A program made the position numbers and the translations under genes. A DNA stretch of 35,566 nt from Welwitschia mirabilis (lineage: Eukaryota). The notes under the pieces are model-generated. The model saw nothing but the letters and a program-made list of their open reading frames with translations, was not told the origin of the DNA and searched no databases. The stretch is taken from NCBI GenBank assembly GCA_051453625.1, contig JBOZIK010000001.1:29842847-29878412 (forward strand). The letters are read 5' to 3'. Positions 8,901-30,053 of this stretch are shown piece after piece (the stretch's first letter is position 1; the number at the start of each line of letters is the position of its first letter).

Positions 8901-9400
8901 ATCCAATGGCTCTGCACGTACAGCTCGAAAGCAGCCATCACAAGAATCGGATTATCGTGTAGTGCTGCGTGATTTAGGGCCCTTCTATTCATTACGGACG
9001 TTGGCTTGTGGACAGATCACTCACAAGGCGTATCCCTCCAACCACAAAAAGATGACGCCCTTTTCTGTGTCTCTCTCCCCTCCCACCTTTCTCTGTGCTT
9101 TAAAATCCGTTGTTCTTCTGTTGGCAATGCACAGAACAATGTACATCGTCCTTGAGGGCTTGAGAAGCTTTAATAATTGTTCTACCCTTTTCTGGTTCTG
9201 ATACCTTTTTCGCTTTTCCCTTCTTGAATTTTATCACACTTCTGGGGAAAGGTTGCAGGTTCAAGTTTTAGTGAAACCATGTAGGCTAGAGTATGCTCTT
9301 TGAAATGGAATCTTCTTCTTTGGTATCCTTCTTGTTCGGTCTCCTGGAATTTTCTTCGCAGGGGCTTCCCATTAGGTAACAAGGGACCAACTGAAACACG

Positions 9401-9668
9401 ATGTGCCGTGCCTGGGTAATTTTTACGATCTCTGTTTTGTTACTGGCTCAAAATCACCGCTGTAACGTTTCTGCTGTGGGCACTCTGCCCTCCTCTGTAA
9501 ATATAGGCGCTCTTTTTGCTTTTGATTCCACAATAGGGCGTGTCGCCAGAACAGCTATTGAGTTAGCAGTGGAGGATGTTAATGGCAGCCAAGACATCCT
9601 CAACGGGACCGAGATTAAGCTTTTCTCTGTTGATTCCAATTGCAATGCATTTCTCGGCACAGAAGCAG
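9401..9668 (+). CDS. GLR3: Glutamate receptor-like channel (GLR3 clade), exon 1: signal peptide and start of the amino-terminal domain
   Basis: MCRAWVIFTISVLLLAQ...VNIGALFAFDSTIGRVARTAIELAVEDVN...DSNCNAFLG; donor CAG|GTATT at 9669, phase 1, joins 28663 in frame. Confidence 0.93.
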
Positions 9669-10013
9669 GTATTGAGTGTTCCTCTTCTGGTTTATAGTTC
9701 TTTATCTCTTTAATGATTTGGAAATATTCTTTTTGGTTAAGATGATTTGGAAATGTTAATCCGTTTCTGCTTACGCTTAAGCTATGCTTTTACTTTGTAG
9801 TTTTCACTAATCTGTGTTTTACAAAATTTTCTTGTAGAATTTCTAATTACATCTGCTTCTACTAGGCTTGTAATAGGCCATATATTTCCAGCATGTATGC
9901 AAAGTTACCTGGTGAAATTTTCCAATCAAAGTATCAGTGAAAAAGGGTTCCCAAAGGTCTAATCAAATCCAGGGAATAGTTTTCAGTTGGGAAGCCAAAT
10001 GAAGTTGTACAAA

Positions 10014-10324
10014 TGTTATGAACCCAGTCGTAAAAATGTAAAAAATTAAAAGTAAGTGACTATTTCGAGGGGGTGAAGCCTCCAACAACCATTTCGAGGG
10101 TGATTAACCTCCAAGATAAGAGTTCAAACTTTATTCGATGATTTCAAAGCACTACAATACCCACTTATTTATAGGACACACAATCCTCCTAACAAAATAC
10201 ATAGTCTATGTGGGATTTAAGAAAAATAACAAAATAACAATTTATGGGGCCAAATAACAGTTTATGGTCCTAATAACAGAAATTGAATTTGCAATAAAAC
10301 TACTATAATTGTGGGGTCACGTTA
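10014..10324 (-). repeat. 3' LTR of the chromovirus
   Basis: Begins TGTTATGAACCCAG on +. About 28 substitutions versus 17517-17827 by hand count (~91% identity). PPT adjacent (10325-10341, TTTGAAGAGGGGTGGAA on -). Confidence 0.92.
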
Positions 10325-10816
10325 TTCCACCCCTCTTCAAAACGATCTTGTCCTCAAGGTTGAAAGTCTGGAAACCTCTTCTGTAACTTGTGTAGAAATT
10401 CCCAAGTAGCATTTTCAGGAGGCAAGTTAGCCCATTGAACAAGCACCTTTGTAACCACTCAATTTTGAAACTTCACCATACAGCGGTCCAAGATAGCTAC
10501 CGGTTGTACTTGTAAGATCCCTTCTTCAGAGATATTCAGAAGCTTTGTAGTTACTGTAGTTTCGTTCCCAATCTTTTTCTTTAAACATGAGACATGAAAA
10601 ATAGGATGTATCTAAGACGCTGGAGGCAATTCAAGCTTATAAGCAATGGAGCCAATTTTCTGAAGCACTTTGTAGAGTCCATAATATCGAGGAGAGAGCT
10701 TTAAATTGCGACAAGTAGCTATTGAAGTTTGCTTGTATGGCTGCAATCTAAGGTCTAGCAAGTCACCAACCTCAAAAGACTTCTTCATGTAGTGCTTGTC
10801 TACTTCTTGTTTCATG
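10325..10816 (-). pseudogene. Second copy of the integrase C-terminus, chromodomain and PPT
   Basis: LRLQPYKQ...KLSPRYYGLYKVLQKIGSIAYKLELP (GPY/F region), then VLVQWANLPPENATWE. Colinear with 13098-13590 with many substitutions. Ends at the N gap 10817-10916. Confidence 0.9.
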
Positions 10817-12268
10817 NNNNNNNNNNNNNNNNNNNNNNNNNNNNNNNNNNNNNNNNNNNNNNNNNNNNNNNNNNNNNNNNNNNNNNNNNNNNNNNNNNNN
10901 NNNNNNNNNNNNNNNNTCGTCAAAATGTGGCCAACTTTTTATGTTGGCCAGCAAAGGAGCAAAAACATGAAATGAGAGACTAATTGTAGATCCAGAGCAT
11001 GGGGTATAATAGTGTTTTCAAAAGTGCAACATGTCACCTGATGAACTTTTCTCAAACAGTTTCAATTAGGACGATTTTTTGAAAAAAAAACATTTTGAAA
11101 ATATCATCAAAATGTTGCCAACTTTTTATGTTGGCAACATGTCGTGGAATAAACCAAAACATTGGCCATCCAAAAAAACATGAAATAAAAGACTAAGTGT
11201 AGGGTAAAAACATGCCATTTCTAGCAATGTGCTCCTATAATTCTACTTGCATTCTTCAATCTTCCACCTTTTTTTTTGATCTTTTTCATCATTTATTGTG
11301 GATTTTCTTCTCTTCCTTTGAACGTGGTTTGACCTAAAGCTAAACTTTCACAATGGTGCGATGTAAAAACAAGGGCAACAAAAGTGATTGCAAGTTTTGT
11401 GGCATAAGCATTTTTGGTGAACTTACTCAATTAAAGTATCACATTCCAAGCATGTTAGGGAACAACACTTGTAAGTGTGCATCTACTAGTATGTTATAAT
11501 GACACTCAATGTCATAGTACATATTTATATGTTTTTCTTGCTACATGCTTTTGTCCACATCATTATGTGGGAAGCAATTTGTTTTATTATGGCTTGAACA
11601 TTTTAATGACATTTTTTCACAAATTCTTTTTTTTTGGATAAGTTCATAAATATAATTGCATTAGTATTTAACAAATTATATGTAGTGTTTAATGTTTCCA
11701 CATAGTAATGGGCTTTCTATTTGTCTATGTACTTCAATTACGTTTTGGATTGTTTATTCTTCTAATTGTTTATGTACTTCAAATACTTTTTGGACTGCTT
11801 ATTTTTAATTGTTTAGTTGTATTGATTATAAATATTATAACTTTTATATTTACACAAATTTTAAATAGAAAATACTCACCATCGACATAACGTGTCTCCT
11901 AACATGACAACTCAACTCCTTCAGTGTGCCAACATAAACTAATTACAAGCATAAACTAACTACAGACATGTATATCAATTATAATTTGGTTGGTACTCGC
12001 GGCTTTCAAGCATGCCTGTAGACAGCTTACAAGGTGCAGAAGTAGACCTTAAGCCACAGTTTTGAATTTACTTCGGGTTTAATAAAATTGAAATCAATAA
12101 TTGCAATCCTTTCGTGTTTAGATGCCGCAGTTTTCTTACGTTTTTCTTCTAAGATCTCAGAATTATGGGATCCCTTTGACAGCAAAACAGATTGCTTTTA
12201 AATTGTCCAGACAAAAAATTTGCAGATGAGCTTAAAACCGACGGCAAGGGTGGAAGAGACGGCAAATC

Positions 12269-12450
12269 AAACCCTAAATTCGTAGCATTCAAGGAACAAA
12301 TTTTGTGCATAACCTTAATAGTTTAACAACGAAACAAAAAGGTCATAGCCAATCTTTCTCTTAGTTTCAAAGAGCAGCAGTACGTTGCCTAAAAAATCCC
12401 CTTTAAAAATTGAAGAAAGAATGAAGGCACTTACAAATACGAAACCCTAA
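12269..12450 (+). promoter_or_regulatory. Two telo-boxes (AAACCCTAA) in the captured P0 intron
   Basis: AAACCCTAA at 12269-12277 and 12442-12450. The motif is enriched near the 5' ends of plant ribosomal-protein genes. Confidence 0.55.
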
Positions 12451-12529
12451 CAATACAAGTACCCTCCAGGAAAACGCGCAAAACAAAAGCAAAAAGGCAA
12501 AGCAGATCAACACAGATGAAGGTACTTAC

Positions 12530-12787
12530 AACAAGCAAAGGAATAAGGTTCAGATACGCAGTATTCCCAGACTTCTCGGCATATATACGAATGGATCTCT
12601 TGATCATTGTATTTTTTCCAATAAGAACGATCGAATCAGGTCTCAATCCTTGGCGAATGTTCTGCAACTGATTGGACCCGACATTGTCTGCAAGGCAAAC
12701 CACAACCTGCGAGTATTGCTTAAGCAGATCACATAGTTTCTTGTCGTAGAGGTTTTCTTCTCGGCCTTTGCTTCCCTTAAACCCCAT
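12530..12787 (-). pseudogene. RPLP0: Captured fragment of a 60S acidic ribosomal protein P0 (uL10) gene: N-terminal 86 codons followed by an intron donor
   Basis: [73 protein letters not shown] matches plant RPP0. Followed by GTAAGT at 12529-12524. No downstream GNVGLIF exon was seen. Confidence 0.92.
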
Positions 12788-12792
12788 TTCTC

Positions 12793-13097
12793 TGTTACGA
12801 ACTTCGGTTGAAAATTGAAAGTAAGTGACGACTTCAGAGGGCTCGGTTGAAAATTGAAAGTAAGTGACGACTTCAAAGGGCTCAAGCCTCGAAGGGTGAT
12901 TAACCTCCAAAACAAGAGTTTGATTTCAAAGCACTCCAGTACGTATAGGACACAAAATCCTTTTAATAAAATATGTAATCGATATGGGATTTAAGAAAAA
13001 TAATAAAATAATAATTTATAGGGTTAAATAACATTTTATAGTCCTAATAACAGTAATGGAATTGCAATAAAACTACTATAATTATGGGTTTACATTA
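12793..13097 (-). repeat. Internal (third) LTR, rearranged
   Basis: Begins TGTTACGAAC and aligns to the outer LTRs through AAAACTACTATAATTATG. Has several short deletions and a 39-bp tandem duplication. Its own PPT lies at 13098-13114. Confidence 0.9.
12804..12881. repeat. 39-bp tandem duplication (2 copies, 1 mismatch) inside the internal LTR
   Basis: TCGGTTGAAAATTGAAAGTAAGTGACGACTTCA(G/A)AGGGC at 12804-12842 and 12843-12881. Confidence 0.95.
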
Positions 13098-13114
13098 TTC
13101 CACCTGTCTTCAAA

Positions 13115-16100
13115 ACAACCTTGTCCTCAAGATTAATAGTCTGGAAACCTCTCCTATAATTTGTGCAGAAATTCCCAAGTAGCATTTTTGAGGAGACAAG
13201 TTAGCCCATTGAACAAGCATCTTTGTAACTGCTGGATTTTAAAACTTCACCATATGGCGGTCTAAGATACCTACCGGTTGTACTTGTAAGATCCTTTCTT
13301 CAGAGATATTCAGAAGCTCTATAGTTATCATAATTTCATCCCCAATCTTTTTCTTTAAACATGAGACATGAAAAACAGGATGTATCTGAGACCTTGGAGG
13401 CAATTCAAGCTTATAAGCAACGGAGCCAATTTTCTGAAGCACTTTGTAGGGTACATAATATCAAGGAGAGAGCTTTAAATTGCAAAGAATAGCTATTGAA
13501 GTTTGCCTGTATGGCTACAATCTAAGTTATACCAAGTCACCAACCTCAAAGGACTTCTCCATGCGGTGCTTGTCTGCATCTTGTTTCATGCGAGTCGTTG
13601 TAGCTTCAAGGTTTTTCTTTAAGAGTTAAAGAATTCGATCCCTATCACGCAACTCCATATCCACATGACAAACCTTTGTTACGCCTGGAACATATGACAA
13701 TAGTGTAGGTGGTAATTGTCCATAAACAGCTTCCTAGGGAGCCATTTGAGTGGAGGAATGAAAAGTGGTATTATACCATCATTCAGCCAATGAAAGCCAC
13801 TTAGACCCCCCCCCTTTGCCTGGTGACTAGTGAAGCACCTCAAATATGTCTCTAAACATCTGTTCGCAACCTTAGGTTGTCCATCTGATTGTGGATAATA
13901 ACCTAAGCTCATGCATAAGTGTGATCCTTGCATCTTTCCAAAAAGCACTTGTAACCACAGGATCACGACTGCTAACAATGGATGTATGCATACCATGCAA
14001 TTTGAAAATATTTTCAAGGAATAAGTTGGCCACCTGTTGTGCTGTATAGGGATGAGATAATGATACGAAATGGGCATATTTGGAAAGATGGTCCACCACC
14101 ACCATAATTGCAGTCTTGCCCTGAGATCATGGTAAGCTATCAATGAAATCCATGAAGATGTCAGACCAAATACGTTTAGGAATATGTAATGGTTGGAGTG
14201 GCCCTGGTAAGGATGTCTCATACTTATTTCTCTGACAGATTTCGCATTTGGCAATATAAGATTTGATATCTTTTTTCATACCTCTCCAATAAAAGTTTTT
14301 TGAAACCCTCTTATAAGTTTTTTGGAACCCAGAGTGACCTGCCTCAGGAGAAGCATGGAGATGTTTCAGAAGCTTAAATCACCATTGGGAATTTTCACCC
14401 AAAACTACTCTTCCTTGATAATGAAGCAATCCATCTTTATAGGAATACTTGAGCACTTCATTTGGCAATTCTTGTAACTTGGTGATGGTATCCTGTAAGA
14501 CTTTATCCTCACTAGTTTCTGTTTTTACTCCTTCAACCCATGCTGGTGATGGCCGAGAGAGAGCTAAAAGCTGTCATTCTAAGTTACGAAAGAGAGCAAC
14601 AACTGCTGCATTCTCTACGCCTTTCTTATACTCAATCTCATAGTCATATTCCATGAGCTTTGCCATCCATTTTTGTTGGATTGTTGTTTCAACTCTCTGA
14701 CCCACTAAATACTTCAGACTTTTATGATCAGTTCAGATTTTGAAATCCCTTCCAATCAAGTATTGTTGCCATTTTTCTATAGCGTGCATAATAGGCATCA
14801 TTTGTTTTTCATAGGTAGATAGCCCAAGATTCTTTTTAGAGAGCACCGATTAGTATATGCTAATGGTCATCCCTCTTGTATAAGAATTGCATGAATCCCT
14901 ACACCAGAGGCATCACATTCAATCACAAATAATTTTGAAAAATCAGGGAGAGCTAATACCGGTGCTATGGTCATGGCTTGCTTAAGATCCTTGAAAGCCT
15001 GCTCTGCTTCAAAACTCCAATTGAATGAATCCTTCTTCAGGAGATTGGTTTGGGGAGCACTAATCTTTCCATAATTTATGATGAATTTTCTGTAGTAACC
15101 AGTCAACCCCAAGAAGCCCCTCAAACCATGAATACTTTTAGGCACTAGCCAATCAAGCATGCAAGCAACCTTCTTTGGATCAGCGGCCACTCCATCACGG
15201 ATATTATGTGCCCTAGATATTCTACTTGATTCCGTCCAAATGAACATTTTGATTGTTTGACAAAAAGCTTATTCTTTTTTAAAACATTAAAAGTTGTCTG
15301 TAAGGCAGCCATATGTTTCTCCCAAGTGGGGATGTAGACTAGAATATCATCAAAGAAGACCAAAACAAATTGCCGTAGATATAGGCTAAAAACATCATTC
15401 ATGAGACTTTGGAAGGAAGATGGAGCATTTGTTAATCCAAATGGCATGACCAAAAACTCATAATGCCCATGATGAGTACGAAAGGCTGTCTTGCATATGT
15501 CTTCTTCTCGCACCGGTATCTGATGATAACCCAAACAAAGGTCTAGTTTGGAAAAGTATGCAGCTCCATGAAGTTCATCAAATAACTCCTTGATGGTAGG
15601 GATGGGAAATTTATCTTTAATGGTAATTTTATTGAGCTCCTGATAGTCCCCACACATACTCCAGGAACTATCTCGCTTTTGGACTAAAAGAATTGGTGAA
15701 GAGTAAGGACTCTGGCTAGGCCGAACAATCCCTACATTAAGCATCTCCCTTATTTGTTTTTCAATTTCATTTTTCTAGATCTGGGGGTACCAATAAGGCT
15801 GAATATTTGGCAGTTGACTTCTAGCTTGCAAGGGAATCTGATGATCTCAAGTCCATGTAGGAGGAAGCCCAATAGGTTCAGCACAGATATCACTATAATT
15901 TTGTAGTAACTTCTTCAGTTCCAGTGGTTCATCTATAGCATCTTTATTTTCCTCCAAAGAACACAACTTGATTAAAATAGTTGCATCGTTTTTGGATATC
16001 ATGTTTTCAATGCAATGGCTGCTTATAATTTGTGTTGGTGGTGCTCTTGACCATTGTAGTGAATATTTTTGTCCTTGATATGTAAATTGCATAGACAGTC

Positions 16101-17488
16101 TAAAAAAATCCCATAAAATTGACCAAGTGTGCGAAGCCAAAATGCCCCTAACATGACATCGCAACCCCCCAGTGGAAGCAAATATAACTCGGTCCTAAAT
16201 CTGAAATCTTGAACTGATAAGGACAAGTTAAAGCATCTACCTTGAGTTTTTAGTCTCTCCATTTGCCACCATAATGTCAAATGCCTTGTCTTGTTGTATG
16301 TGGCATCCCAATCTCTTGGCAATTGCAGAGTCAATGAAATTATGAGTACTCCCAGAGTCAACCAGAACAGTAATAAGTTGATGTTTAAGAAGACCCTTGA
16401 GTCGCATTGTTTGAGGCGATAATGAACCTGAAATAGCATGCATGGAAACCTTAGGCATCTCCTCTTGAACCTCTATAGGTTGTTCATCCTCTTTCTCGTG
16501 AGACCACTTCCCTTCTAATAAGAATAATTGTTGTGACTTGCATTTATGTCTTAGGGCAAACTTCTCGTCACAATTGTAGCATAACCCCTTGTCCCTTTTA
16601 GCATTTACTTGAGCTAGAGTTAGCCGCTTAATTGGTGGAGCAACTGAGCCCTGTGTTGAAGGAACAGTTAAGGAACTAGGGGCAACAGACTTTCCCTTTT
16701 TTAATCGACTTAAGGGCTGCTTGTCGCTCTTTTTGTAAACGTGCTAATCCGATTACAGCAGACATTGTGGTTGGTCTAAAAACTCGAATATCTGTTTTAG
16801 CTCCTCCTTCAACCCACTGATAAAGCAACTTACAAAAAATTCCTTAGTCAATCCAGTTGTGCAATTTGCTAATTGCTCGAATCGTGATTGATAATCATGA
16901 ACAGATGATGTGTCGAAGTTTGGAGAGTTCNNNNNNNNNNCCCTGTATAGTCTTCGTAAGGGCTAGGGCCAAATCGGACACAAAGGGCCTCAACAAATTT
17001 ATCCCATGTCACATCCTGATTTTTCTTGGTCTTCTCAAACCATTGATACCATTGGAGAGCTTCCTTCTCAAGGTGAAAGGAGGCTATGGCAACCTTTTGT
17101 GTTTTTGGAGTCAGATTAAATTTAAAGAAGTGTTTAGCCCTATAGACCCATCCGTTCGGATCATCTCCATCAAAACATGGAAATTCTAGACTCATGAACC
17201 GTGTTTGAATTGCGACACCCTTATCCACTTGCTGTATCAATCCCTTTTGCCCTAGGTGTTGAGTTTGATCATGATCCCTAGAAGATACTTCTTCAAAAGA
17301 AGCTGAGGATTTTCCTTGGGTGAGCTTTAATTCTAGTGTGCCAATTAAAGTTTTGATATCTTCTAATGCCTCGGTATTGCTTTCCACCGTCACCTTGACT
17401 TTACCATGTCATTTGTCTGCCTAACAGATGTTTCCTTTAAGACTTTGAGGTCATTTTCCATCTTTGAAAGTCTCGTGCCATCCACCAT
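13115..17488 (-). pseudogene. Degenerate gag-pol polyprotein with frameshifts and stops
   Basis: Start MVDGTRLSK at 17488; gag FPCFDGDDPNGW; knuckle GLCYNCDEKFALRHKC; protease [26 protein letters not shown] and FFDDILVY; RNase H ECDASGVG; integrase HHCC and VVVDHLSKYAHF; chromodomain. Confidence 0.95.
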
Positions 17489-17501
17489 GGATCTGGAACA
17501 A

Positions 17502-17514
17502 GGCTTTGATACCA
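17502..17514 (-). promoter_or_regulatory. Primer-binding site for initiator tRNA-Met
   Basis: TGGTATCAAAGCC on -, one mismatch to TGGTATCAGAGCC, 2 nt from the 5' LTR. Confidence 0.9.
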
Positions 17515-17516
17515 AA

Positions 17517-17827
17517 TGTTATGAACCCAGTCGTAAAAATGTAGAAAATTGAAAGTAAGTGACCACTTTGATGGGGTCAAGCCTCCAACAACCACTTTGA
17601 GGATGATTAACCTCCAAAATAATAGTTCAAACTTTATTCGATGATTTCAAAGCACTACAATACCCACATATTTATGGCACACAAAATCGTCCTAACAACA
17701 TACGCAGTCCATGTGGGATTTAAGAAAAATAACAAAATAATAATTTATAGGGCCAAATAACATTTTATGGTCCTAATAACAGAAATTGAATTTGCAATAA
17801 AACTACTATAATTATGAGGTCACATCA
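17517..17827 (-). repeat. 5' LTR of the chromovirus
   Basis: TG...CA termini, flanked by the PBS and the TSD ACAAA. Confidence 0.93.
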
Positions 17828-19523
17828 ACAAACGTGGAATTGTAAAGAAAAGGAGATAAAGCTTTAGGGGTTCTCATTTTTAAAAGGTTTTTAACCTTAG
17901 CATTGTTTAAACCTTTGATTTGAGGTTGCGGTTTAATTGTTCATTTTAAAATCTTGGAGTTGCAGTCTAGTGCTTGTGTTTGTGCTTGTATTGTCTGTGA
18001 CATAAAAATAATAAGTGCTCTGCACTACTTTTCCAAGGCCACAGGCTTCAAAGAGGCCATACTTCGTGATATCTCTGTGTTTTGTTTGTGCTCTTTATTC
18101 TTTTTGTTTGTTGTTTCTGGCTTCTTCCTATAGCATTTTGAGCTTTGTAATTTGTGCTTATCCAAGAGAAAAGACAATCTACAGGAAGTCTGAATTCTTT
18201 GAAGGAAATATAGGACTCCTCTTTTGTTGAAGATTTGAATCTCATAATTACCACGAAGCTGGTTCATTACAACATTATTGAATTTGAATTCTGAGGTATC
18301 TTCTTTTTGCTTAGAACAGGATATATTTAAGGCCGGCAAATGATTTTATTTCCCATGCCAGATAAAATTAATCAAAAAAATAGGAGATGCAGACCTTTTG
18401 GAAACAGCTTTGGATTTTAAGATCATTTGATGTCCCTAGAAGCACGTTACAAAAAGCAATGGCTCTCTTAAAATTAGGTTTTATAGTGTTCTCTTGAGGG
18501 AGAAAAACATTATTGACTCATGTTGTGGCTCCATGGGCCTGCAGATGTTAAACCAAGGGCAAATAGAGTTTGGGCATTAGTCCTTCAACCATGCTACTTG
18601 ACAGAATTAAAGGGAGGGCGCATTTTATGCACACTTTCAATACACTAGTCAACTGTAAAATAACAGACCCAATGTTTAGAAATTTTCCTTGTGCCTTTCA
18701 ATTGATTTTGTTAGGAATATGAACCATTATGTTTCCTTATGTTAGTGCCACAATGGACTAAATTGTTAGAGTAGTTGGCAACTAGGCCTTTATTATGCGA
18801 AGATGATCCTGCCTCCCTTTTTCCTCTAGCCCTCAAGGTTATAGATTATTTCAGGATGGAGATTTCTACTTTTGAAAACCTTTAGGTATAAAGTAGTTGC
18901 TTGGGGGCCAATGGAGAAATTGGCTGCCAAATTGTTTCTTGTCTAACTTAACTTTTGTTGAAGGGCTAACACTATTGTTAACAATGCACGAGCCACAGTA
19001 AAATTGGATTTTACCTTATTTAAAAAAACTCTTAAATAGGTATTTAATTTCATAAGATATGATAAGTTACTTATGAAGATTCACATAACTCAAATAAATG
19101 ACATATCGTGTACCATAAATACATGGATTCTTAACACAGGTATGTGTGGAAGTTTATTGAAAATTAATGTATTGTTATTTTCAATTGCTTTCTTTGTTAC
19201 TATTTAACCTAAGATTTCTACATTCATTATTGTATCCTACACTTTTGATTGTTTTCTACCTTAGGAACTAACAATTTTGCGAGAAGATTATGGTCCATAA
19301 ACAACAAAATTGTTGGAAGAATCCTAATAATCTTAACAATCATGTGAAAAATACTGTGAAAACAAATAAAGCTAGTGTTGTAGCACTAACTGATTCAGAT
19401 GTAAATGACTTATCTACTTTTTGTTCTAACACTGATAATGACTCTTCTTTCTAGTATATTGATGCAAGCAATTTCACATATCCCTAAAGAACTTGATTTT
19501 TGTATTACTAAAAATAGCACACA

Positions 19524-19820: not shown

Positions 19821-20827
19821 AAAAATAGTGCACATTATATCACTATCAAGAAGCAAATCTAACGCAAAGGTCTCACATGTTGGTAACATATAGCTTGACA
19901 ATCTTATGTATAAAAATGTACTAATAATTTGAAAATTTTAAATGAACCTAGTGAGTGTTATGAAACTAATTGAAAAAATGCTATACATCTGAACTTAGAA
20001 AACATGATATTAACTATCACTGTATAATCAAGAAAGTTAAAAAAATGAATTAAAAATCCAATTAAGAAACAATGTACAAATATTAACGCCTAGATTACAA
20101 CTAACATTTCTTAGTGTTGACAATGGTAATAAATGAAGTGACAGTGTTATAGACTGGGGCACATTGGTTTACACACCCTTAGAAAATCACACCACATTTA
20201 AAAGTCTTTAAAAATTTCATAAAAAAATTACAAATGATCTCGTCTGTGAGTTTTGTCAAATAAGAAAAACCAAAAAAAAAAAAAAAAAAAGGATTGCAAA
20301 ACATATAGAAACCGCAGCTTTTGCAACATTAGAGTTAGTTCATAGTGACTTATATAGACCACTACAAATTGCTTCTATCAAAGGAGAAATGATATTTTAT
20401 CCCTTTATAGGGGACTACATAGGTATACATATGTTTGCTTCTTGAGACTCAAAATTTGAGCTTTAGAAACTTTCAAAATATGTTAAAGATTTGCCCCAAA
20501 AAAAGGAGAGGGAAAAAGGGAAAAAAGCAGTTAAGAAGTAGGAGAACAAATCAAGGTAGAGAATATGTCAATATGGAATTTCAAAAATATTTGAATGACC
20601 ATGGAATTAGACATGAAATTACTCAAAGACATATACTTAATTCAATAGAATAGTACAACAAAAGGACTGGGGAAAAACAAGGAGCATTAGCGGAAATCAT
20701 GAGAACTTTATTCCATCAAATTGTGATCTCAAAGTATTCATGGGCTCAAGTTTTAAATCCTCTGACTTATGTCTTAAAGAGGCTTCCAATTGATAGTTTA
20801 GATGGAAAAACTCCTAGTGTCAAAATG

Positions 20828-21041
20828 TATATATGTGGTGAGTTTCAAGGTCTTGGGCTTGACTTCTATAATTCGCAAGCTAGCTTGTGCTTCTACCCAG
20901 GTATTCCAGGTGGATCTAATGTGAGCAAGGGCCACCTATGGGTTTTAATCTTGCCAGTAGACAAGTGATCTTGGTACATGCAATGTGACTTTACCATGAA
21001 TTAACTTCTTTTACCACCCAAAGAAAAAAAAAAGCAAAAAA
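20828..21041 (+). mobile_element. SINE copy B (diverged, internally deleted)
   Basis: Shares GCCAC.TATGGGTTTT and CCATGAATTAACTTC plus an A-tail with copy A. Interrupts the copia integrase. Confidence 0.6.
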
Positions 21042-23587
21042 GAGGAGGCGGGTTTGTGTTTGATAGAGTGGTAAATGTCCAACATCTAAGACCAATTGGA
21101 TGTAAGTGCCACATTCATAGAAAAATGGATAGCAAGTCAGAATAAAATCATCTTGGGTACAAACTAGATCACAAAGCCTATTAGCTATGGGATGGCGCAC
21201 AACACACGATGATAATTTCTTGAGATTCACATTTGAAGAATCAAAATTTGATTCAAAATTAGCCGTATCCAATGCTGTAATTTACAAAACATACTGATGA
21301 CAATGATTTAGATTTTGAAGGTAGTCCCATAGTGCTTGAAGGGGAAAGTCTACAAAATCAATAAATATGGGACTAGATGACCTGAATTAGAGTAGCTTTG
21401 AACCAATTAATATGAAACTAGAAAAAGCTAGAATCCAATCATATGGGACTCATGAATGCTGAATCAAAGCTATATCATATTGAGTATGATACCTTTGATA
21501 AAGTGAGAATTGATGTGAATTGCACCTAATTCAAAAGCCATCATCTGTGGATAAGACTTGTAGCATGTGCTTGAATCTAGAGGGTTCACAACACAACTTT
21601 GTTTACTAGGGAAACAAGAAAATGAGGTCCTTTAAAGTAATGTAAAATGTGTAACAAAAAATTAGTCATACAAAGCAATCAAATCAGGCCAAGAAATGAT
21701 AAAGAAGTCCTCCAAATACCACATTGGAAAGAGGTCATGGAAGATGAAAAATTAAAAACAAAAAAGATGGAAGTTCAAGGAACCCTCAATCTATCAAATG
21801 AGGCAAAACTTGTCAAATTTTACTAAATGTTTTGTACAAAACTAAATTCAGACAAAGCAATTAACAAGTTCTATGCTAGATAGGTTGTTGAAGGATATAG
21901 TTGAAGAAAGGGTATTGATTATAATGAAGCCTTTGTGCCCTTAATCAAGATGAGAAGTATTTGAATCATCTTGACAATAATAACCCAATATGATCAGAAA
22001 TTATTTCAATTTTCAAGTAAAATCAATCTTCCTATATGGAGAACTTTTGGAAGCCATGTTCAACTATTATAAAAGATACTAGCACTGGAAATGGAAAAAA
22101 GCCAAGAAATGTAAAAAAGCCAATAAAAGACAATAACCAACATCCAAAAGAGAGAGACAACAGTGTAAGGAGCAAAACCCACAAGGGTAAAGCCATGGCA
22201 AAATAATGCAAAGCTCTTCTTATCTTCAATAATGAACATTACATCGAAGGCAACATAACTTTGTTTAAGAAACCTTCGCCAGTGCTTGATGATTTAATGG
22301 CATAACCAAAGACCCTTAAATTGGATAAAAGCAAATAGTACATTTCTAAATAAATCTCTGTAACACACAGTTTAGCTCCACCACACAAGTCCTTAAATTA
22401 TTACATCATAACAAAAGTTTTTTCAAACAAAAACTTGGTGGTAAAACTACAAACTTAGAATGGATACCATGCCAAACAATGGATTTGACTTTACAAAACT
22501 ACAACACCAACTAGTATAGGGCTTCGATAAAACAAGGACCAAAAATAAAGGTTGCAAAGTAAAAAAAGGATTTGTATGGGTTAAAGAGGCATCTAGGACC
22601 TAGTATATGAAGATGAATGGGTTTCTTCACCTTCTTAAGTTTAAGAAATCAAATGTTGACAACAATCTCTATTTCCTTCAAACTCTACTATCCTTGTATT
22701 ATAAAATAATGATATAATAGTTACAGGGTATATATGCAATCAAATTGAGAAAGTAAAGACTACACATATTAACAAGTTCATGATATTAGACTTAGGATTG
22801 TTAAGTTACTCTCTAAGGATCTAGTTACAGCAAGATAAAGCCTTGATGACCATCATCAATACTTAGGTTGCATGCTTTGTTGTCTCTATCAATTGACAAC
22901 TGGCAAATGGGAATTGCGAGTACATATATCAATGATATAATGCCATGTGAAGGGGGTTTACATCTTCCAAAAGAATTAGGATAAGGAGATTCTTATTAAA
23001 TTTGAAGCTATCAATTAGAAGAAATGGTTAGTTCGCNNNNNNNNNNATGATACCACACAATATTAAATGCTGATACTCTATCTAGCTAATATGAGACTTG
23101 ATATTACCTTTGCAATAAATAAATTAGCAAGGGTCATGCATGATTCTAAACAAGGTTGCTTTAAAACCACATTTAGAATTCTATGTTATAGTTTTGGAAC
23201 TGCCAATTTGGGAATAAGATTTACTAAAGGAATAAATACGTAATTGCAAGTTTGTCCAAACATAGACTAGGTTGGGGACAAGGAAATGGGAGTTTTAACA
23301 ATTGGGCATCTTGAGTGCAGCTAGAATCATCAATAGAAGGCACGTGAGTGGGGTTAATAAAATTTTGAATGTAAAATCACAAAATGATTACTAATAAAAT
23401 ATTTTATTTGCATAGATGAGAAATAAGAAGTTCAAGAAAAAGTAAAAGCAATCAGCACACCAAATTTTAAAGTGTTTAGGGTGCATAGCAACCTTGCATC
23501 CACTCTTAGTCTTAATTTTTTGACACCATTCATGGTTATGAATAGCTAGCTTAGTAGTTATCTGACGATCTTGGATATCTCTCCTTA

Positions 23588-27050: not shown

Positions 27051-28662
27051 TTTAGCAATCTTGATCACACTACTAAAAAGAAGAAGAAGCAGAAGGAGAA
27101 GAAGAAGAAAGTGAAATTTACGTAACAAATTTCTTCTCATTATCCAGTCTAAGGCATTTAAAAGTTGTACCCTTCCAATTCTCTAACAAAGCTTCAAACT
27201 TCTTGAAACATGGAAGCCCTGTAATTCCTTTGTAAGTATATAAAGCCATGTATTCTATGAAAAACCATGGTTAAGTAAAATGAAGAAGGAAATACCTTTA
27301 AGGGGCATTGTTGGTGCTTCTTGAGTGTTCAAATGAATTTCAAGCAAAGCAATGATGATTCTAGCACCACTGGAGGAAAAGTGTGATCCATTTTGCTGAG
27401 TAGAGAGAAAGTGCTCACAGTCAATTAAATGAAGAGACTCTTATATTGACAAAAGTTTTCTATCAGGTATTACAATCATATCATGCTTGTAATTACAAAG
27501 CATACGCAATCTTCTTAATTTATTTCGTTTCAACATAACCAAAAGCTCCTTTGATAATACTGCTGCTTATTAGATGCCAGTACTTTTTATGAACCGTTCT
27601 GGTTATGACATAAAGGATCTTTCAATACAACATGCTGCGGGCTCCTATGTGCTTGTATTTGTGTAGGCTGGGCATATAAATATCAAAGGCTTTCATTTTA
27701 CAAGTTCCTCGAGCCATAGTTGCATCCTTTGGGCAGAGAAACCACTGCCACATACAAGGAACTATATGGTCAATTGTAAGCTCACTTCTGATCATCCAAT
27801 GAATAAAGGGCTGCTAAATTCAGTATGCCGTGTGCTTCCACATCTTTTGGAATGAAAATGTTTTTCATCATCATTGATCCAAACCATGTCGTTTGGTTCT
27901 TTTCCTGTTTTTCACTAAATGGTAATCTTATTTATTCAGAGAAACTAACTGTTCTGCCTGGATACATTTTTGGATGAGTTCTGTGCCTATGGCATTTATA
28001 GAGGATCTCAAATTTTTAATTGAAATATATATCTTCCTAGAAATCATTTAAGTGTTATGTTTCCAAAATTAGTACTGTAATAGGCTAGGAAAGTGTACAA
28101 TGGAATAGTTTTCTCTTTGTTTCTAAATGCAAATCCTGGGATCTTCATTTAGATAAAGAAAAGTTTATTATGTAAGACAGTTGTGAGAGCCTGCTTTGAA
28201 GAAACAAGCTGCTTATTTTAATGCTTTTCTATTGTGATTAAATTCTCACACTGGACAGAAACAGCTTTTATCTGTATAACTTTGAACACCATTAATCTGA
28301 AGCTTTGTTAACTTCTGAAGCTTTATTGGACAGCTGATAAGCTGTGGAAACTATGGCAAATTCAAGTAGTGCCTGTACTGAAACGGTGATGAAAGGGAAA
28401 ATTTCTCTGTTGAACTATTGCTATTATTCTAACTTATGGACTGCTTCGGAAATAAAGTGGATCATGTTTCAAGTGGAGTTTATTATTAGTTTATTACATT
28501 TCTTATTCTCATCTTACTTTCATTTTGACAAATACAGTATTTATCAAATCTCATGGAACATGAGGAACCTTCACTTACTTTTATGTGCTTTGTAGCTTTC
28601 TGTAAAAGTTTTCAGGGTGGAATTCGCCAATAATCACACTTAAACCATGATCTTATGTGCAG

Positions 28663-29987
28663 CTTTAGGGTTGATGGAAATGAATTTGACAGCAGTCATA
28701 GGTCCACAGTACTCTGTGCTTGCACATATTGTTTCTCATATAGCGACTCACTTAAAAGTACCTCTAATATCATTTGCTGCTACTGACCCAACTCTTACAT
28801 CTTATGAATACCCTTACTTCATCCGTATGACCCACAATGATTATTTCCAAATGGGAGCCATTGCTGACTTTGTTGGGTACTTTGGCTGGAAGCAAGTGGT
28901 GGCTATTTATATAGATGATGACTATGGAAGAAACGGTATTTCTGCTTTAGGAGATGCTCTTTTAAGTGTGGGAGCTAAGATTACCAGGAAAGAAGCTCTG
29001 ATCCCTGGAATCGATCAGGAAGGTCTGAGCAGCATCTTAGCTAAGCTAATTTTGATGGAGACAAGAATTTTTGTCGTTCATATGAATTCAAACACTGGCA
29101 TTCAACTTTTCTCTGCGGCCAAAAATGTTGGAATGCTTGGCAATGGCTACGTCTGGATAGTAACGGATTGGCTTTCTTCTGTTCTGGACTCTGGTTTAAT
29201 AGAACCTGAAGGCATGTCCTCCTTTCAAGGTTTAGTTGCACTGCGACCACATTTTCATGACTCCCAAAAGCAGTATTCCTTGAAGCAAAGATGGAAGACC
29301 TTGCAGAAGGAACACAGGATTAACGTGTCGTTGAACTCTTTTGGCCTGTATGCTTATGACAGTGTATGGATGATTGCTTATGCAATTGACAGTTTTCTGA
29401 ACCAAGGTGCAACGTTTACTTTTGTACAACAGTCTGATCTACTACACACAAATGGAAGTAAATCAGATTTAGCAACGTTAAAGGTACTTGATGAAGGGCC
29501 ACAAGTGCTTAAAACCATTTTGAAGTCTAAGTTTGATGGTGTGACAGGTCCTATACAATTGGATTCAAAACGTGACCTACTGTTTTCGAGTTACGAAATT
29601 ATCAATATTGCTGGGACAGGTTATCGCAGGATTGGGTATTGGTCAAATGATACTGGCCTATCTGTTACCCCTCCAGAAGCTACATCCCCTCTAAAGCGCC
29701 CAAAAAATGGTACAATGCCCAAATTACATGACGTAATATGGCCTGGTGAAAGCAAATCAGTTCCTCGGGGTTGGGTTCTTCCTGAAAATGGTCGACAGCT
29801 TGTGATTGGTGTGCCAAGAAAGTCAGGATTTAGGGAATTTGTGACAATAGCAGAGGATGGCACTGCTAGAGGATTCTGTATTGATGTGTTTGCTGCTGCT
29901 GTAAATCTACTGCCTTACAGTTTCCAGTACACATTCATGCCTTATTCACCCGACTATGATAAACTTGTGGATCAGCTGGCACGAAAG
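28663..29987 (+). CDS. GLR3: GLR3 exon 2: amino-terminal domain and start of S1
   Basis: AVIGPQYS, SFAATDPTL, DDDYGRNGI, GYVWIVTDWL, GLYAYDSVW, PRGWV, GFCIDVF; donor AAG|GTGAG, phase 0. Confidence 0.97.
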
Positions 29988-30053
29988 GTGAGCATCCGTG
30001 TTAAAAAATTTACAAATAAATTCTTAGATAGTACTGATAGGAAACCGCAATAG

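Follow-up and report, generated by a model that had tools for sequence, protein, structure and literature searches.

The structure in the Welwitschia mirabilis scaffold that combines three LTRs with a piece of the ribosomal protein gene P0 was tentatively explained as a scaffold conflation of two copies of one retrotransposon family, a reading to which we assign a probability of about 0.45. The earlier note had taken the structure for a single transposed unit that arose by LTR-mediated 3' transduction. Herein, the window refers to the whole stretch of DNA analysed, 35,566 nt in length. Direct observation covers every local junction, the gap positions, the decay of the P0 copy to a pseudogene and the existence of another, expressed P0 gene, and we infer that the 10-N join in gag is wrong.

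Layout and classification of the element

All the features listed by the earlier note (LTRs, PBS, gag-pol, PPTs, P0 and a second integrase (IN) end) were recovered in their places on the minus strand (Table 1). Sequence inspection revealed TTTGT at both outer ends, whereas the flank of LTR2, GAGAA, differs, indicating that a single TSD brackets the outer LTRs only. LTR2 is preceded by a PPT and has no PBS beside it.

Table 1. Features of the three-LTR structure, listed in element orientation
Feature	Position	Strand	Evidence
TSD copy TTTGT, 5' LTR side	17828-17832	-	sequence inspection
5' LTR, 311 nt, TG...CA, one AATAAA at 17638	17517-17827	-	LTR comparison
PBS TGGTATCAAAGCC, 2 nt past the 5' LTR	17502-17514	-	sequence inspection
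gag (Ty3_capsid / Retrotrans_gag), broken by the 10-N gap	16756-17408	-	Pfam
10-N assembly gap in gag	16931-16940		N run
Degenerate pol: protease, RT, RNase H, integrase zinc finger, SH3-like IN end A, PPT	13098-16743	-	Pfam
First PPT, directly before LTR2	13098-13111	-	
LTR2, 305 nt, both ends complete	12793-13097	-	LTR comparison
GAGAA between LTR2 and the P0 ATG (ATG at 12787)	12788-12792	-	
P0 (uL10) exon 1 pseudogene copy, aa 1-86	12530-12787	-	Ribosomal_L10 profile, tblastn
Intron-like low-copy DNA after GTAAGT donor	12036-12529	-	contig depth
Rest of cargo, mainly repetitive non-coding DNA	10917-12035	-	
100-N gap, nominal size	10817-10916		N run
Second integrase end (SH3_Tf2-1, chromodomain-like tail) and PPT	10325-10816	-	Pfam
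3' LTR, 311 nt, one AATAAA at 10135	10014-10324	-	
TSD copy TTTGT, 3' LTR side	10009-10013	-	sequence inspection

The Pfam domains along 17408-13242 follow the order gag-PR-RT-RH-IN, which is that of Ty3/gypsy elements, with matches to RVT_1 (E 1e-33), Integrase_H2C2 (E 5e-22), RT_RNaseH_2 and SH3_Tf2-1. Other Ty3/gypsy traits are present as well, namely the outer LTR pair, the short TSD, a PBS after the 5' LTR and a PPT before the 3' LTR. The PBS is of a type that we take to be that of initiator tRNA-Met (tRNA-iMet). At the same position the 5' LTR starts with TG and the 3' LTR with TA, and both end with CA. Purine-rich tracts ending in GGTGGAA precede both LTR2 and the 3' LTR. The second IN end (10816-10325) is 89% identical to the first. 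In its tail, Chromo (PF00385) matched 10458-10357 at E 8.9e-5 and 22.8 bits, under the Pfam cut-off of 25.1; the chromodomain region of the IN copy adjoining LTR2 is frameshifted. Many stops and frameshifts break every coding frame, indicating that the element is dead.

The element lies in a glutamate-receptor gene, as the earlier note had placed it. The open frame at 9398-9697 (+) holds receptor exon 1 (ANF_receptor profile positions 3-45), which the mRNA contig X12 record 9 covers up to 9668, and the open frame at 28644-30050 (+) holds exon 2 (profile positions 42-352). The two exons dovetail around the element, indicating that it sits inside a receptor intron of ~19 kb.

Comparison of the three LTRs

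The outer LTRs are identical at 283/311 positions (91%), equal in length (311 nt) and without indels, and the divergence of the pair is K2P 0.097. When LTR2 was aligned with the 3' LTR, there were 31 mismatches over 233 aligned positions and 35 gap positions. Pairwise alignment of the three LTRs thus bore out the expected relations, with the outer LTRs mutually closest and LTR2 more distant. Compared with the outer LTRs, LTR2 carries deletions of 8, 14 and 12 nt and a 39-nt tandem duplication at 12804-12883. Its divergence from them is equal in the R/U5-like and U3-like halves, and the R/U5-like half has several indels. The AATAAA motif, which occurs once in each outer LTR, is absent from LTR2 alone.

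A 5-nt flank match would be expected by chance at ~0.0015 given the local base composition. Three read-derived contigs of X9 track the PPT and then diverge precisely at 13097, which independently supports the LTR start used for the TSD. The contig X1 record 8 crosses from the flank into the 5' LTR and extends 37 nt there, and X5 record 20 (12846-13226, 0 differences) bridges the PPT/LTR2 boundary. An alternative version of LTR2 lacking 76 nt (joint 12811 to 12888) was present in X1 and X5.

The P0 fragment and the cargo

The P0 exon 1 copy matches the Ribosomal_L10 profile at E 1e-9 and a gymnosperm P0 at 87% over aa 1-86. The fragment stops there, the insertion domain and acidic tail of the complete P0 / uL10 being absent, and tblastn found no P0 exon beyond exon 1 anywhere in the window. 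It carries two compensating 1-nt indels (12765, 12752), by which six residues differ from those of the P0 gene that is expressed. The contig X12 record 11, from a P0 mRNA that is spliced and highly expressed, is identical to 12529-12752 at 214/224 positions (95.5%), with the splice at 12530/12529, indicating that a separate parent P0 gene exists and that the copy in the window is a pseudogene.

The earlier note had supposed a P0 locus elsewhere with the LTR 5 nt upstream of its start codon. A separate expressed gene does exist, and its mRNA has a normal 5' UTR of its own. The match of this mRNA to the window takes in GAGAA and stops with a loose end at 12795, 3 nt inside LTR2; these 3 nt, ACA at the LTR2 terminus, are common to the expressed P0 5' UTR at the junction. 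GAGAA is P0 5' UTR sequence, and for the element to which LTR2 belongs it would serve as the TSD.

The LTR2/P0 junction is present in an independent sample, in which X9 record 27 bridges 12621-12836; X9 record 26, which spans 12081-12537, shows 16 differences and 7 gaps. Depth over 12036-12529, P0 and LTR2 is ~2x that of the flanks, and with the LTR2 version lacking 76 nt this suggests that more than one LTR2-P0 copy may exist. Low-copy stretches of the cargo contig, about 2 kb, lie at 12036-12947 and 10917-11123. The cargo also contains a 45-nt tandem repeat at 11714-11815, and direct repeats ~190-210 nt apart at its edge on the 100-N gap. A TIR/TSD pair was sought around the cargo and none was found, in line with the transduction model of the earlier note. 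The six contigs listed over 11654-12836 differ from the window at 46/1809 nt (2.5%), and the eight listed flank contigs at 10/3737 nt (0.27%); together with the ~2x depth, the 2.5% difference hints at a second LTR2-P0 copy.

Assembly gaps and continuity

There are six N runs in the 35.6-kb window (100, 49, 100, 100, 10 and 10), indicating a fragmented scaffold. From this mix of lengths and the unsized 100-N run, it appears that no read-pair link underlies the 100-N join. The earlier note had given the 100-N gap at 10817-10916 only, and the 10 N within gag were overlooked.

The contig with LTR2 and P0 (10917-16930) has an N run at either end, and the 10-N gap is its only link to the 5' LTR and the receptor-gene side. 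The Pfam gag profile breaks off at position 37 ahead of the 10-N gap and picks up again at 60 beyond it, which would allow for a loss of 0 to ~40 nt there. Around both gaps the summed contig depth is ~95-260 versus 4-6 in the flanks (X1, X5), roughly 20-50x. Among the 32 of 6525 pieces and 15 of 69 joints listed, no contig bridged a gap or tied the cargo, P0 or LTR2 to the flanks. For a single transposed unit, 10917-16930 would have to run unbroken into the sequence on either side, and at each of these joins the scaffold has an N gap. The cargo/IN junction, if any, and the template-switch junction proposed by the earlier note would fall inside the 100-N gap.

Origin of the three-LTR structure

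Under the conflation reading, receptor intron 1 would hold an old, dead two-LTR chromovirus with 311-nt LTRs, the TTTGT TSD and a K2P of 0.097. The contig 10917-16930 would come from another family copy, whose 3' LTR (LTR2) lies upstream of a decayed P0 paralogue, 5 nt from its ATG, and GAGAA would be that copy's own target-site copy. A short-read scaffolder could have slotted this contig into the gap of the intron element, producing the 10-N join in gag and the 100-N join to the other IN end. Misplacement is possible since the contig is collinear with the gag-pol of the family, and the 100-N join could arise whatever lies between because receptor exons 1 and 2 dovetail. In support, the contig is N-bounded on both sides within multi-copy element sequence, and no contig among the 32 of 6525 pieces and 15 of 69 joints listed ties the cargo to the receptor flanks. 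Conflation also leaves nothing unusual to explain: equal-length, indel-free outer LTRs with a TSD, and an LTR2 that ends in CA followed by 5 nt of P0 5' UTR. Against it, the gag coordinates at which the two contigs end almost coincide, as if they were adjacent, although a homology-driven misjoin would look alike. The ~2 kb of low-copy sequence should give links to the true neighbours, which makes misplacement less probable than it would be if the contig consisted of repeats only. LTR2 lost exactly the AATAAA, which fits read-through, and more than one LTR2-P0 copy may exist, a condition that a donor-plus-copy model requires.

That read-through model, put forward by the earlier note, we consider unlikely. 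A family copy Y would have sat 5 nt upstream of the ATG in a P0 paralogue, its 3' LTR (LTR2) without a poly(A) signal, so that transcription continued through P0 exon 1 into intron sequence. The resulting RNA would have been packaged with a sister RNA, a non-homologous switch (now in the 100-N gap) restoring the IN end, PPT and U3, and one integration of the composite would have left identical outer LTRs at insertion and a single TSD. The single TSD around the outer LTRs only, and outer LTRs that are closest relatives, equal in length and free of indels, agree with this, as do a PPT and no PBS at an LTR2 complete to CA, AATAAA missing from LTR2 alone as expected of a read-through donor, and the P0 fragment in element orientation. 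The splice donor is present with no acceptor or exon 2, so the P0 intron could not have been spliced out. The separate expressed P0 gene, the LTR2/P0 junction in the independent sample (X9 record 27) and the lack of a TIR/TSD pair around the cargo are also in favour, and there are precedents in three-LTR complexes (PMC1950507), read-through transduction and Bs1 (PMC13317346) and oncogene capture after read-through (PMC4276931). However, continuity of the composite hangs on the two N gaps, with the switch junction hidden. The model expects the outer R-U5 to come from the donor, whereas LTR2 is equally far in its R/U5-like half, with indels. Capture at insertion does not fit cargo contigs ~2.5% off the window versus 9.7% between the outer LTRs; if these contigs represent the donor locus, 2.5% is too small for a capture that dates back to the outer LTR pair (K2P 0.097). 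Furthermore, the RNA-mediated TRIM and Bs1 captures reported in 10.1101/010850 are exon-only, whereas the Welwitschia copy retains an intron.

DNA-level import after insertion, by SDSA with filler DNA or ectopic gene conversion, appears similarly improbable. A break in the IN region of the intron element would be followed by strand invasion into copy Y, synthesis through its IN end and LTR and ~2 kb or more into the flanking P0 pseudogene, and end-joining to the other side of the break. This accounts for the duplicated IN end (89%), the more diverged LTR2 and the intact outer LTRs and TSD, permits a cargo younger than the outer LTR pair, as the ~2.5% contig differences hint, and needs no unspliced RNA for the retained intron. 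But invasion of a template only ~89% identical would in general be disfavoured, the AATAAA loss in LTR2 becomes mere coincidence, and the import relies on the same two N gaps, its rejoining junction hidden in the 100-N one. In plants, gene fragments have been described to move by SDSA with filler DNA that contains genes (PMC3445842). Finally, two adjacent family insertions, one full and one 5'-truncated or gap-hidden, could flank an old P0 pseudogene, with TTTGT matching fortuitously. The 100-N gap could conceal the 5' part of the second element, and complexes from adjacent elements are, according to PMC1950507, not uncommon. Yet the match has a chance of ~0.0015, the 5' LTR is far nearer the 3' LTR (91%, no indels) than LTR2, its supposed partner, and the GAGAA flank mismatches TTTGT, which makes this account highly improbable.

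Relation to known systems and implications

Three-LTR complexes with a flanking TSD were ascribed to template switching by Sabot & Schulman (2007, PMC1950507). As there, the Welwitschia structure has an internal third LTR, outermost LTRs most similar and a single flanking 5-bp repeat. The complexes described by these authors contain two complete internal domains, with a normal core after the middle LTR. Here, in contrast, LTR2 is followed by 5 nt of UTR, the P0 exon and intron and no PBS or gag; the first core is complete and only ~490 nt of the second (10816-10325) can be seen; the divergence of LTR2 clearly exceeds that within the outer pair, and continuity crosses two gaps. The maize Bs1 and TRIM transductions described so far in PMC13317346 and 10.1101/010850 are exon-only, retain no internal LTR and often occur in several transposed copies. 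They share with our case a sense host-gene fragment between LTRs and a proposed route of read-through past a weak poly(A) signal. A host-derived cargo with an identifiable parent gene, the expressed P0, is a further Bs1-like trait, whereas the Welwitschia structure keeps an intron and the donor's whole 3' LTR.

In the oncogene capture model, a read-through RNA is co-packaged and recombines with a helper RNA. The proposed steps here are alike: an element inserts upstream in sense orientation, read-through yields a chimeric RNA, and a second genome supplies the 3' end. Oncogene capture after read-through in retroviruses (PMC4276931) is an animal paradigm, in which captured sequences have as a rule been spliced and no internal LTR is retained. 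Filler-DNA or SDSA repair of double-strand breaks inserts gene fragments in plants (PMC3445842), and the fragments described there are likewise intron-bearing, non-collinear and copied to new sites independently of any transposing unit. Unlike those cases, the tract would start in a homologous retroelement and include an LTR, and any junction microhomology would lie within the gap.

If the structure is an artefact, as we tentatively favour, N-bounded contigs in multi-copy elements of fragmented assemblies need long-read support before they are read as nested or composite. It is unlikely that the composite is real and of RNA-level origin, in which case one TSD-flanked gymnosperm element would preserve as fossils the donor's whole 3' LTR, the target-site copy next to it and a stretch of exon and intron that escaped splicing. 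If that were true, a plant LTR retrotransposon would provide structural evidence for the route of read-through plus recombination known from retroviral oncogene capture. A real composite would be a rare, still-readable intermediate of gene capture, with a poly(A)-less donor LTR, the donor target site and unspliced host flank, and would bear on gene-piece duplication and pseudogenisation in giant gymnosperm genomes.

Structure of the putative three-LTR element

Reading of the - strand, together with Pfam searches and LTR alignment, recovered at its place every feature that the earlier note had listed for the element, a decayed Ty3/gypsy LTR retrotransposon in an intron of a glutamate-receptor gene. 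The internal region has the Ty3/gypsy domain order of gag, aspartic protease, RVT_1 (E 1e-33), RT_RNaseH_2, Integrase_H2C2 (E 5e-22), and SH3_Tf2-1 in Pfam, and its coding region is interrupted by many stops and frameshifts. The second integrase end carries a chromodomain-like tail with an E value of 8.9e-5, under the Pfam cut-off.

Features of the element in the order of the - strand (window positions)
Feature	Position	Strand	Remark
TSD TTTGT	17832-17828	-	beside 5' LTR
5' LTR	17827-17517	-	311 nt
PBS TGGTATCAAAGCC		-	2 nt past 5' LTR
PPT, then LTR2	LTR2 13097-12793	-	internal third LTR
GAGAA, then ATG opening P0 frame	ATG 12787	-	downstream of LTR2; 86 codons
Non-coding DNA, then 100 N	gap 10817-10916		~1.6 kb, beyond P0 donor site
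Second integrase end	10816-10325	-	89% identity to first integrase end
PPT, 3' LTR, TSD TTTGT	3' LTR 10324-10014; TSD 10013-10009	-	3' LTR 311 nt

Public sequencing runs were compared with the window as assembled Logan contigs. Among the 24 runs listed, 16 held part of the window, and four (X1, X5, X9, and X12) were compared; the contig-based results rest on the 32 of 6525 pieces, 15 of 69 joints, and 24 of 695 loose ends that were listed.

Divergence of the LTRs

The outer LTRs were identical at 283 of 311 positions with zero indels (K2P 0.097), whereas LTR2 aligned with the 3' LTR at 233 positions, 31 of them mismatched, and a further 35 were gap positions, bearing out the expectation that the outer LTRs are mutually closer and LTR2 more distant. 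At the substitution rates usually applied in dating (~1.3e-8 to 2.2e-9 per site and year), the K2P of the outer pair would correspond to roughly 4 to 22 million years. The LTR start underlying the TSD is backed externally by three X9 contigs, which match along the PPT and part from the window precisely at 13097.

Each outer LTR contains exactly one AATAAA (17638 and 10135), a motif that LTR2 has lost through a 14-nt deletion. A 39-nt tandem duplication is also present in LTR2 (12804-12883, 2.1 copies, 97% matches). At this duplication, contigs of X1 and X5 are without 76 nt (joint from 12811 to 12888), and this shorter form is an allele of LTR2 or else another version of it. The 3' LTR bin 9908-10211 had summed contig depths of 7520 (X5) and 2886 (X9), compared with 491 and 126 in the 5' LTR bin, and loose ends were located at 10130 and 10178 within it. 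Because of this depth excess and the loose ends, a short piece of 9908-10211 seems to be common to a far more abundant repeat.

The P0 fragment and the cargo

The ribosomal-protein P0 (uL10) frame after LTR2 matched Ribosomal_L10 (E 1e-9, Pfam), with 87% identity to residues 1-86 of a gymnosperm P0 and a GTAAGT donor at its end; the closest named P0 relatives were gymnosperms. The earlier note had placed a P0 gene elsewhere in the genome, and a separate, highly expressed P0 was found in two X12 contigs (depths 232 and 95). The former, record 11, matches 12529-12752 with 10 differences and then runs on for 169 nt reading as the following P0 residues, indicating that it is spliced at 12530/12529. 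In the latter, two 1-nt indels relative to the window (12765 and 12752) restore the usual P0 residues, and beyond 12795 the contig continues with 103 nt of 5' UTR unrelated to the window; the match to the parent UTR extends through GAGAA and 3 further nt (ACA, the LTR2 end). Since the spliced mRNA and the restoring indels show a separate expressed gene, the P0 in the window is a pseudogene fragment. At 12736, in the P0 exon, the window has G whereas every covering contig in all four runs has T; the G was probably introduced by the assembly or is a private variant. When proteins were searched with the read-through ORF of exon 1 plus intron, all 110 matches had an identity of at most 72% and singled out no parent or second-copy ORF.

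A separate TIR or TSD pair around the cargo (the P0 and non-element DNA from LTR2 to the 100-N gap, 10917-12792), which the earlier note had named as counter-evidence to its own model, was looked for in 10917-12800. No such pair brackets P0 there, and the inverted repeats, none longer than 25 nt and all imperfect (72-88% complementary), gave no sign of a carrier DNA transposon with terminal inverted repeats. An Rfam search of the cargo for an intronic snoRNA gave one sub-threshold chance match only (mir-96, E 0.69), and no RNA run containing the cargo was found among the runs listed. At 11231-11387, several contigs of X1, X5, and X12 skip 137-171 nt, reflecting either an insertion in the window's repeat copy or a deletion in other copies.

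Junctions and continuity of the assembly

X9 record 27, a 216-nt contig from another study, spans 12621-12836, of which 44 nt lie in LTR2 and 172 nt past it, with four differences and no gap, indicating that the LTR2/P0 junction is real. X5 record 20 (12846-13226, zero differences) spans the PPT/LTR2 boundary. At the junction of the 5' LTR with its flank, X1 record 8 reaches 37 nt into the LTR and X5 record 24 reaches 30 nt, and at that of the 3' LTR, X1 record 1 and X12 record 10 each reach 26 nt; the last three records are under the bridging threshold of 31 nt. Among the 15 joints listed (of 69), none joined 10013 to 17828 as an empty site would, and the LTR-to-LTR joints (e.g., 10057 to 17594) belong to other family copies or solo LTRs.

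The summed contig depth was 4-6 in the flanks, ~10-15 at 12036-12947 (X1 and X5), 35-120 at 11124-12035 (X1, X5, and X9), and ~95-260 in the element body (X1 and X5). Six of the listed contigs, within 11654-12836, showed 46 differences from the window over 1809 positions (2.5%), and eight listed flank contigs 10 over 3737 (0.27%). The 2.5% differences, the 76-nt-shorter LTR2, and the doubled depth give only a hint of a second, close LTR2-P0 copy.

There are six N runs in the window (100, 49, 100, 100, 10, and 10), including a 10-N gap inside gag (16931-16940) that the earlier note had overlooked. The contig 10917-16930, which extends from the cargo through P0 and LTR2 over most of pol, has a gap at either end, both in multi-copy element sequence, and no link from it to the receptor-gene flanks was found among the 32 pieces (of 6525) and 15 joints (of 69) listed. 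The Pfam coordinates allow the 10-N gap a true size of 0 to ~40 nt, so the contigs meet at nearly one gag position, which is expected under true adjacency and homology-driven misjoin alike. The receptor exons would by themselves justify the 100-N join, which is uninformative on the intervening sequence. Direct repeats of 32 and 29 nt, ~190-210 nt apart, directly adjoin the 100-N gap in 10917-11202, and this local duplication may be the reason why the contig stops there.

Possible origins of the three-LTR structure

We tentatively favor, with a probability of about 0.45, a scaffold conflation of two family copies. An ordinary two-LTR element would occupy the receptor intron, while the other copy would have its LTR, along with GAGAA as the target-site copy, within the 5' UTR of a P0 paralogue, and the contig of this P0-adjacent copy would have been wrongly placed into the gap of the intron element. 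Every component would then be ordinary and one wrong join would suffice in a visibly fragmented assembly, although ~2 kb of low-copy sequence in the contig should have anchored its placement. The earlier note had proposed LTR-mediated 3' transduction, with RNA read-through into P0 and a template switch; a detailed co-packaging model exists for oncogene capture. The distribution of AATAAA, its loss from LTR2 through the deletion, the sense orientation of the P0 piece relative to the element, its absent acceptor, and the unbracketed cargo all speak for this origin. We nevertheless consider it unlikely, as the R/U5-like half of LTR2 has diverged from the outer LTRs at least as much as the U3-like half, the cargo has kept an intron, and the ~2.5% contigs, should they represent the donor locus, show too little divergence for an origin dating back to the age of the outer LTRs.

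Ectopic repair at the DNA level after insertion, in which a family copy beside the P0 pseudogene served as donor for SDSA or gene conversion, would produce the identical anatomy, permit a cargo younger than the outer LTR pair, and account for the intron. But it would require strand invasion of an only 89% identical template and turn the AATAAA loss into a coincidence, and we regard it as doubtful too. Two adjacent insertions whose TSDs match by chance are highly improbable, the probability of a chance 5-nt flank match being ~0.0015. An unequal-crossover tandem of one element (LTR-core-LTR-core-LTR) was rejected: LTR2 is no hybrid of the outer LTRs, and neither PBS nor gag lies downstream. The local junctions and the P0 pseudogene are real. 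For their apparent union in one transposed unit, an artefact of this assembly has a higher probability than any one biological mechanism.

In PMC1950507, template switching is held responsible for three-LTR complexes that are flanked by a TSD and have similar outer LTRs. Rice and maize together yielded two of them out of 4704 candidate elements, and two more cases came from Triticeae; these have two complete cores and host DNA is absent, whereas the element in the window carries P0. PMC13317346 reviews Bs1 and transduction by read-through, and PMC4276931 describes read-through with oncogene capture. The TRIM transductions of 10.1101/010850 hold exons only, unlike the cargo in the window, which keeps an intron. 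Gene movement by SDSA filler DNA is described in PMC3445842.

The host gene

The frames 9398-9697 (+) and 28644-30050 (+) match ANF_receptor profile positions 3-45 and 42-352, respectively. Downstream of the latter come ligand-gated channel exons, and receptor-gene exons extend to 31963 (+). Since these ANF_receptor parts flank it, the element lies in the ~19-kb first intron of the glutamate-receptor gene. Remains of a different retroelement were observed in the same intron at ~20200-23300 (+), with an integrase-core (rve) match (E 8.8e-5) at 20423-20650, reverse-transcriptase-like frames near 23067-23240, and a 10-N gap at 23037-23046. In the RNA-like run X12, a contig of 2669 nt spans 9300-9668 and so includes exon 1 as far as 9668; this glutamate-receptor-like gene thus appears to be expressed even with an intron full of transposons.
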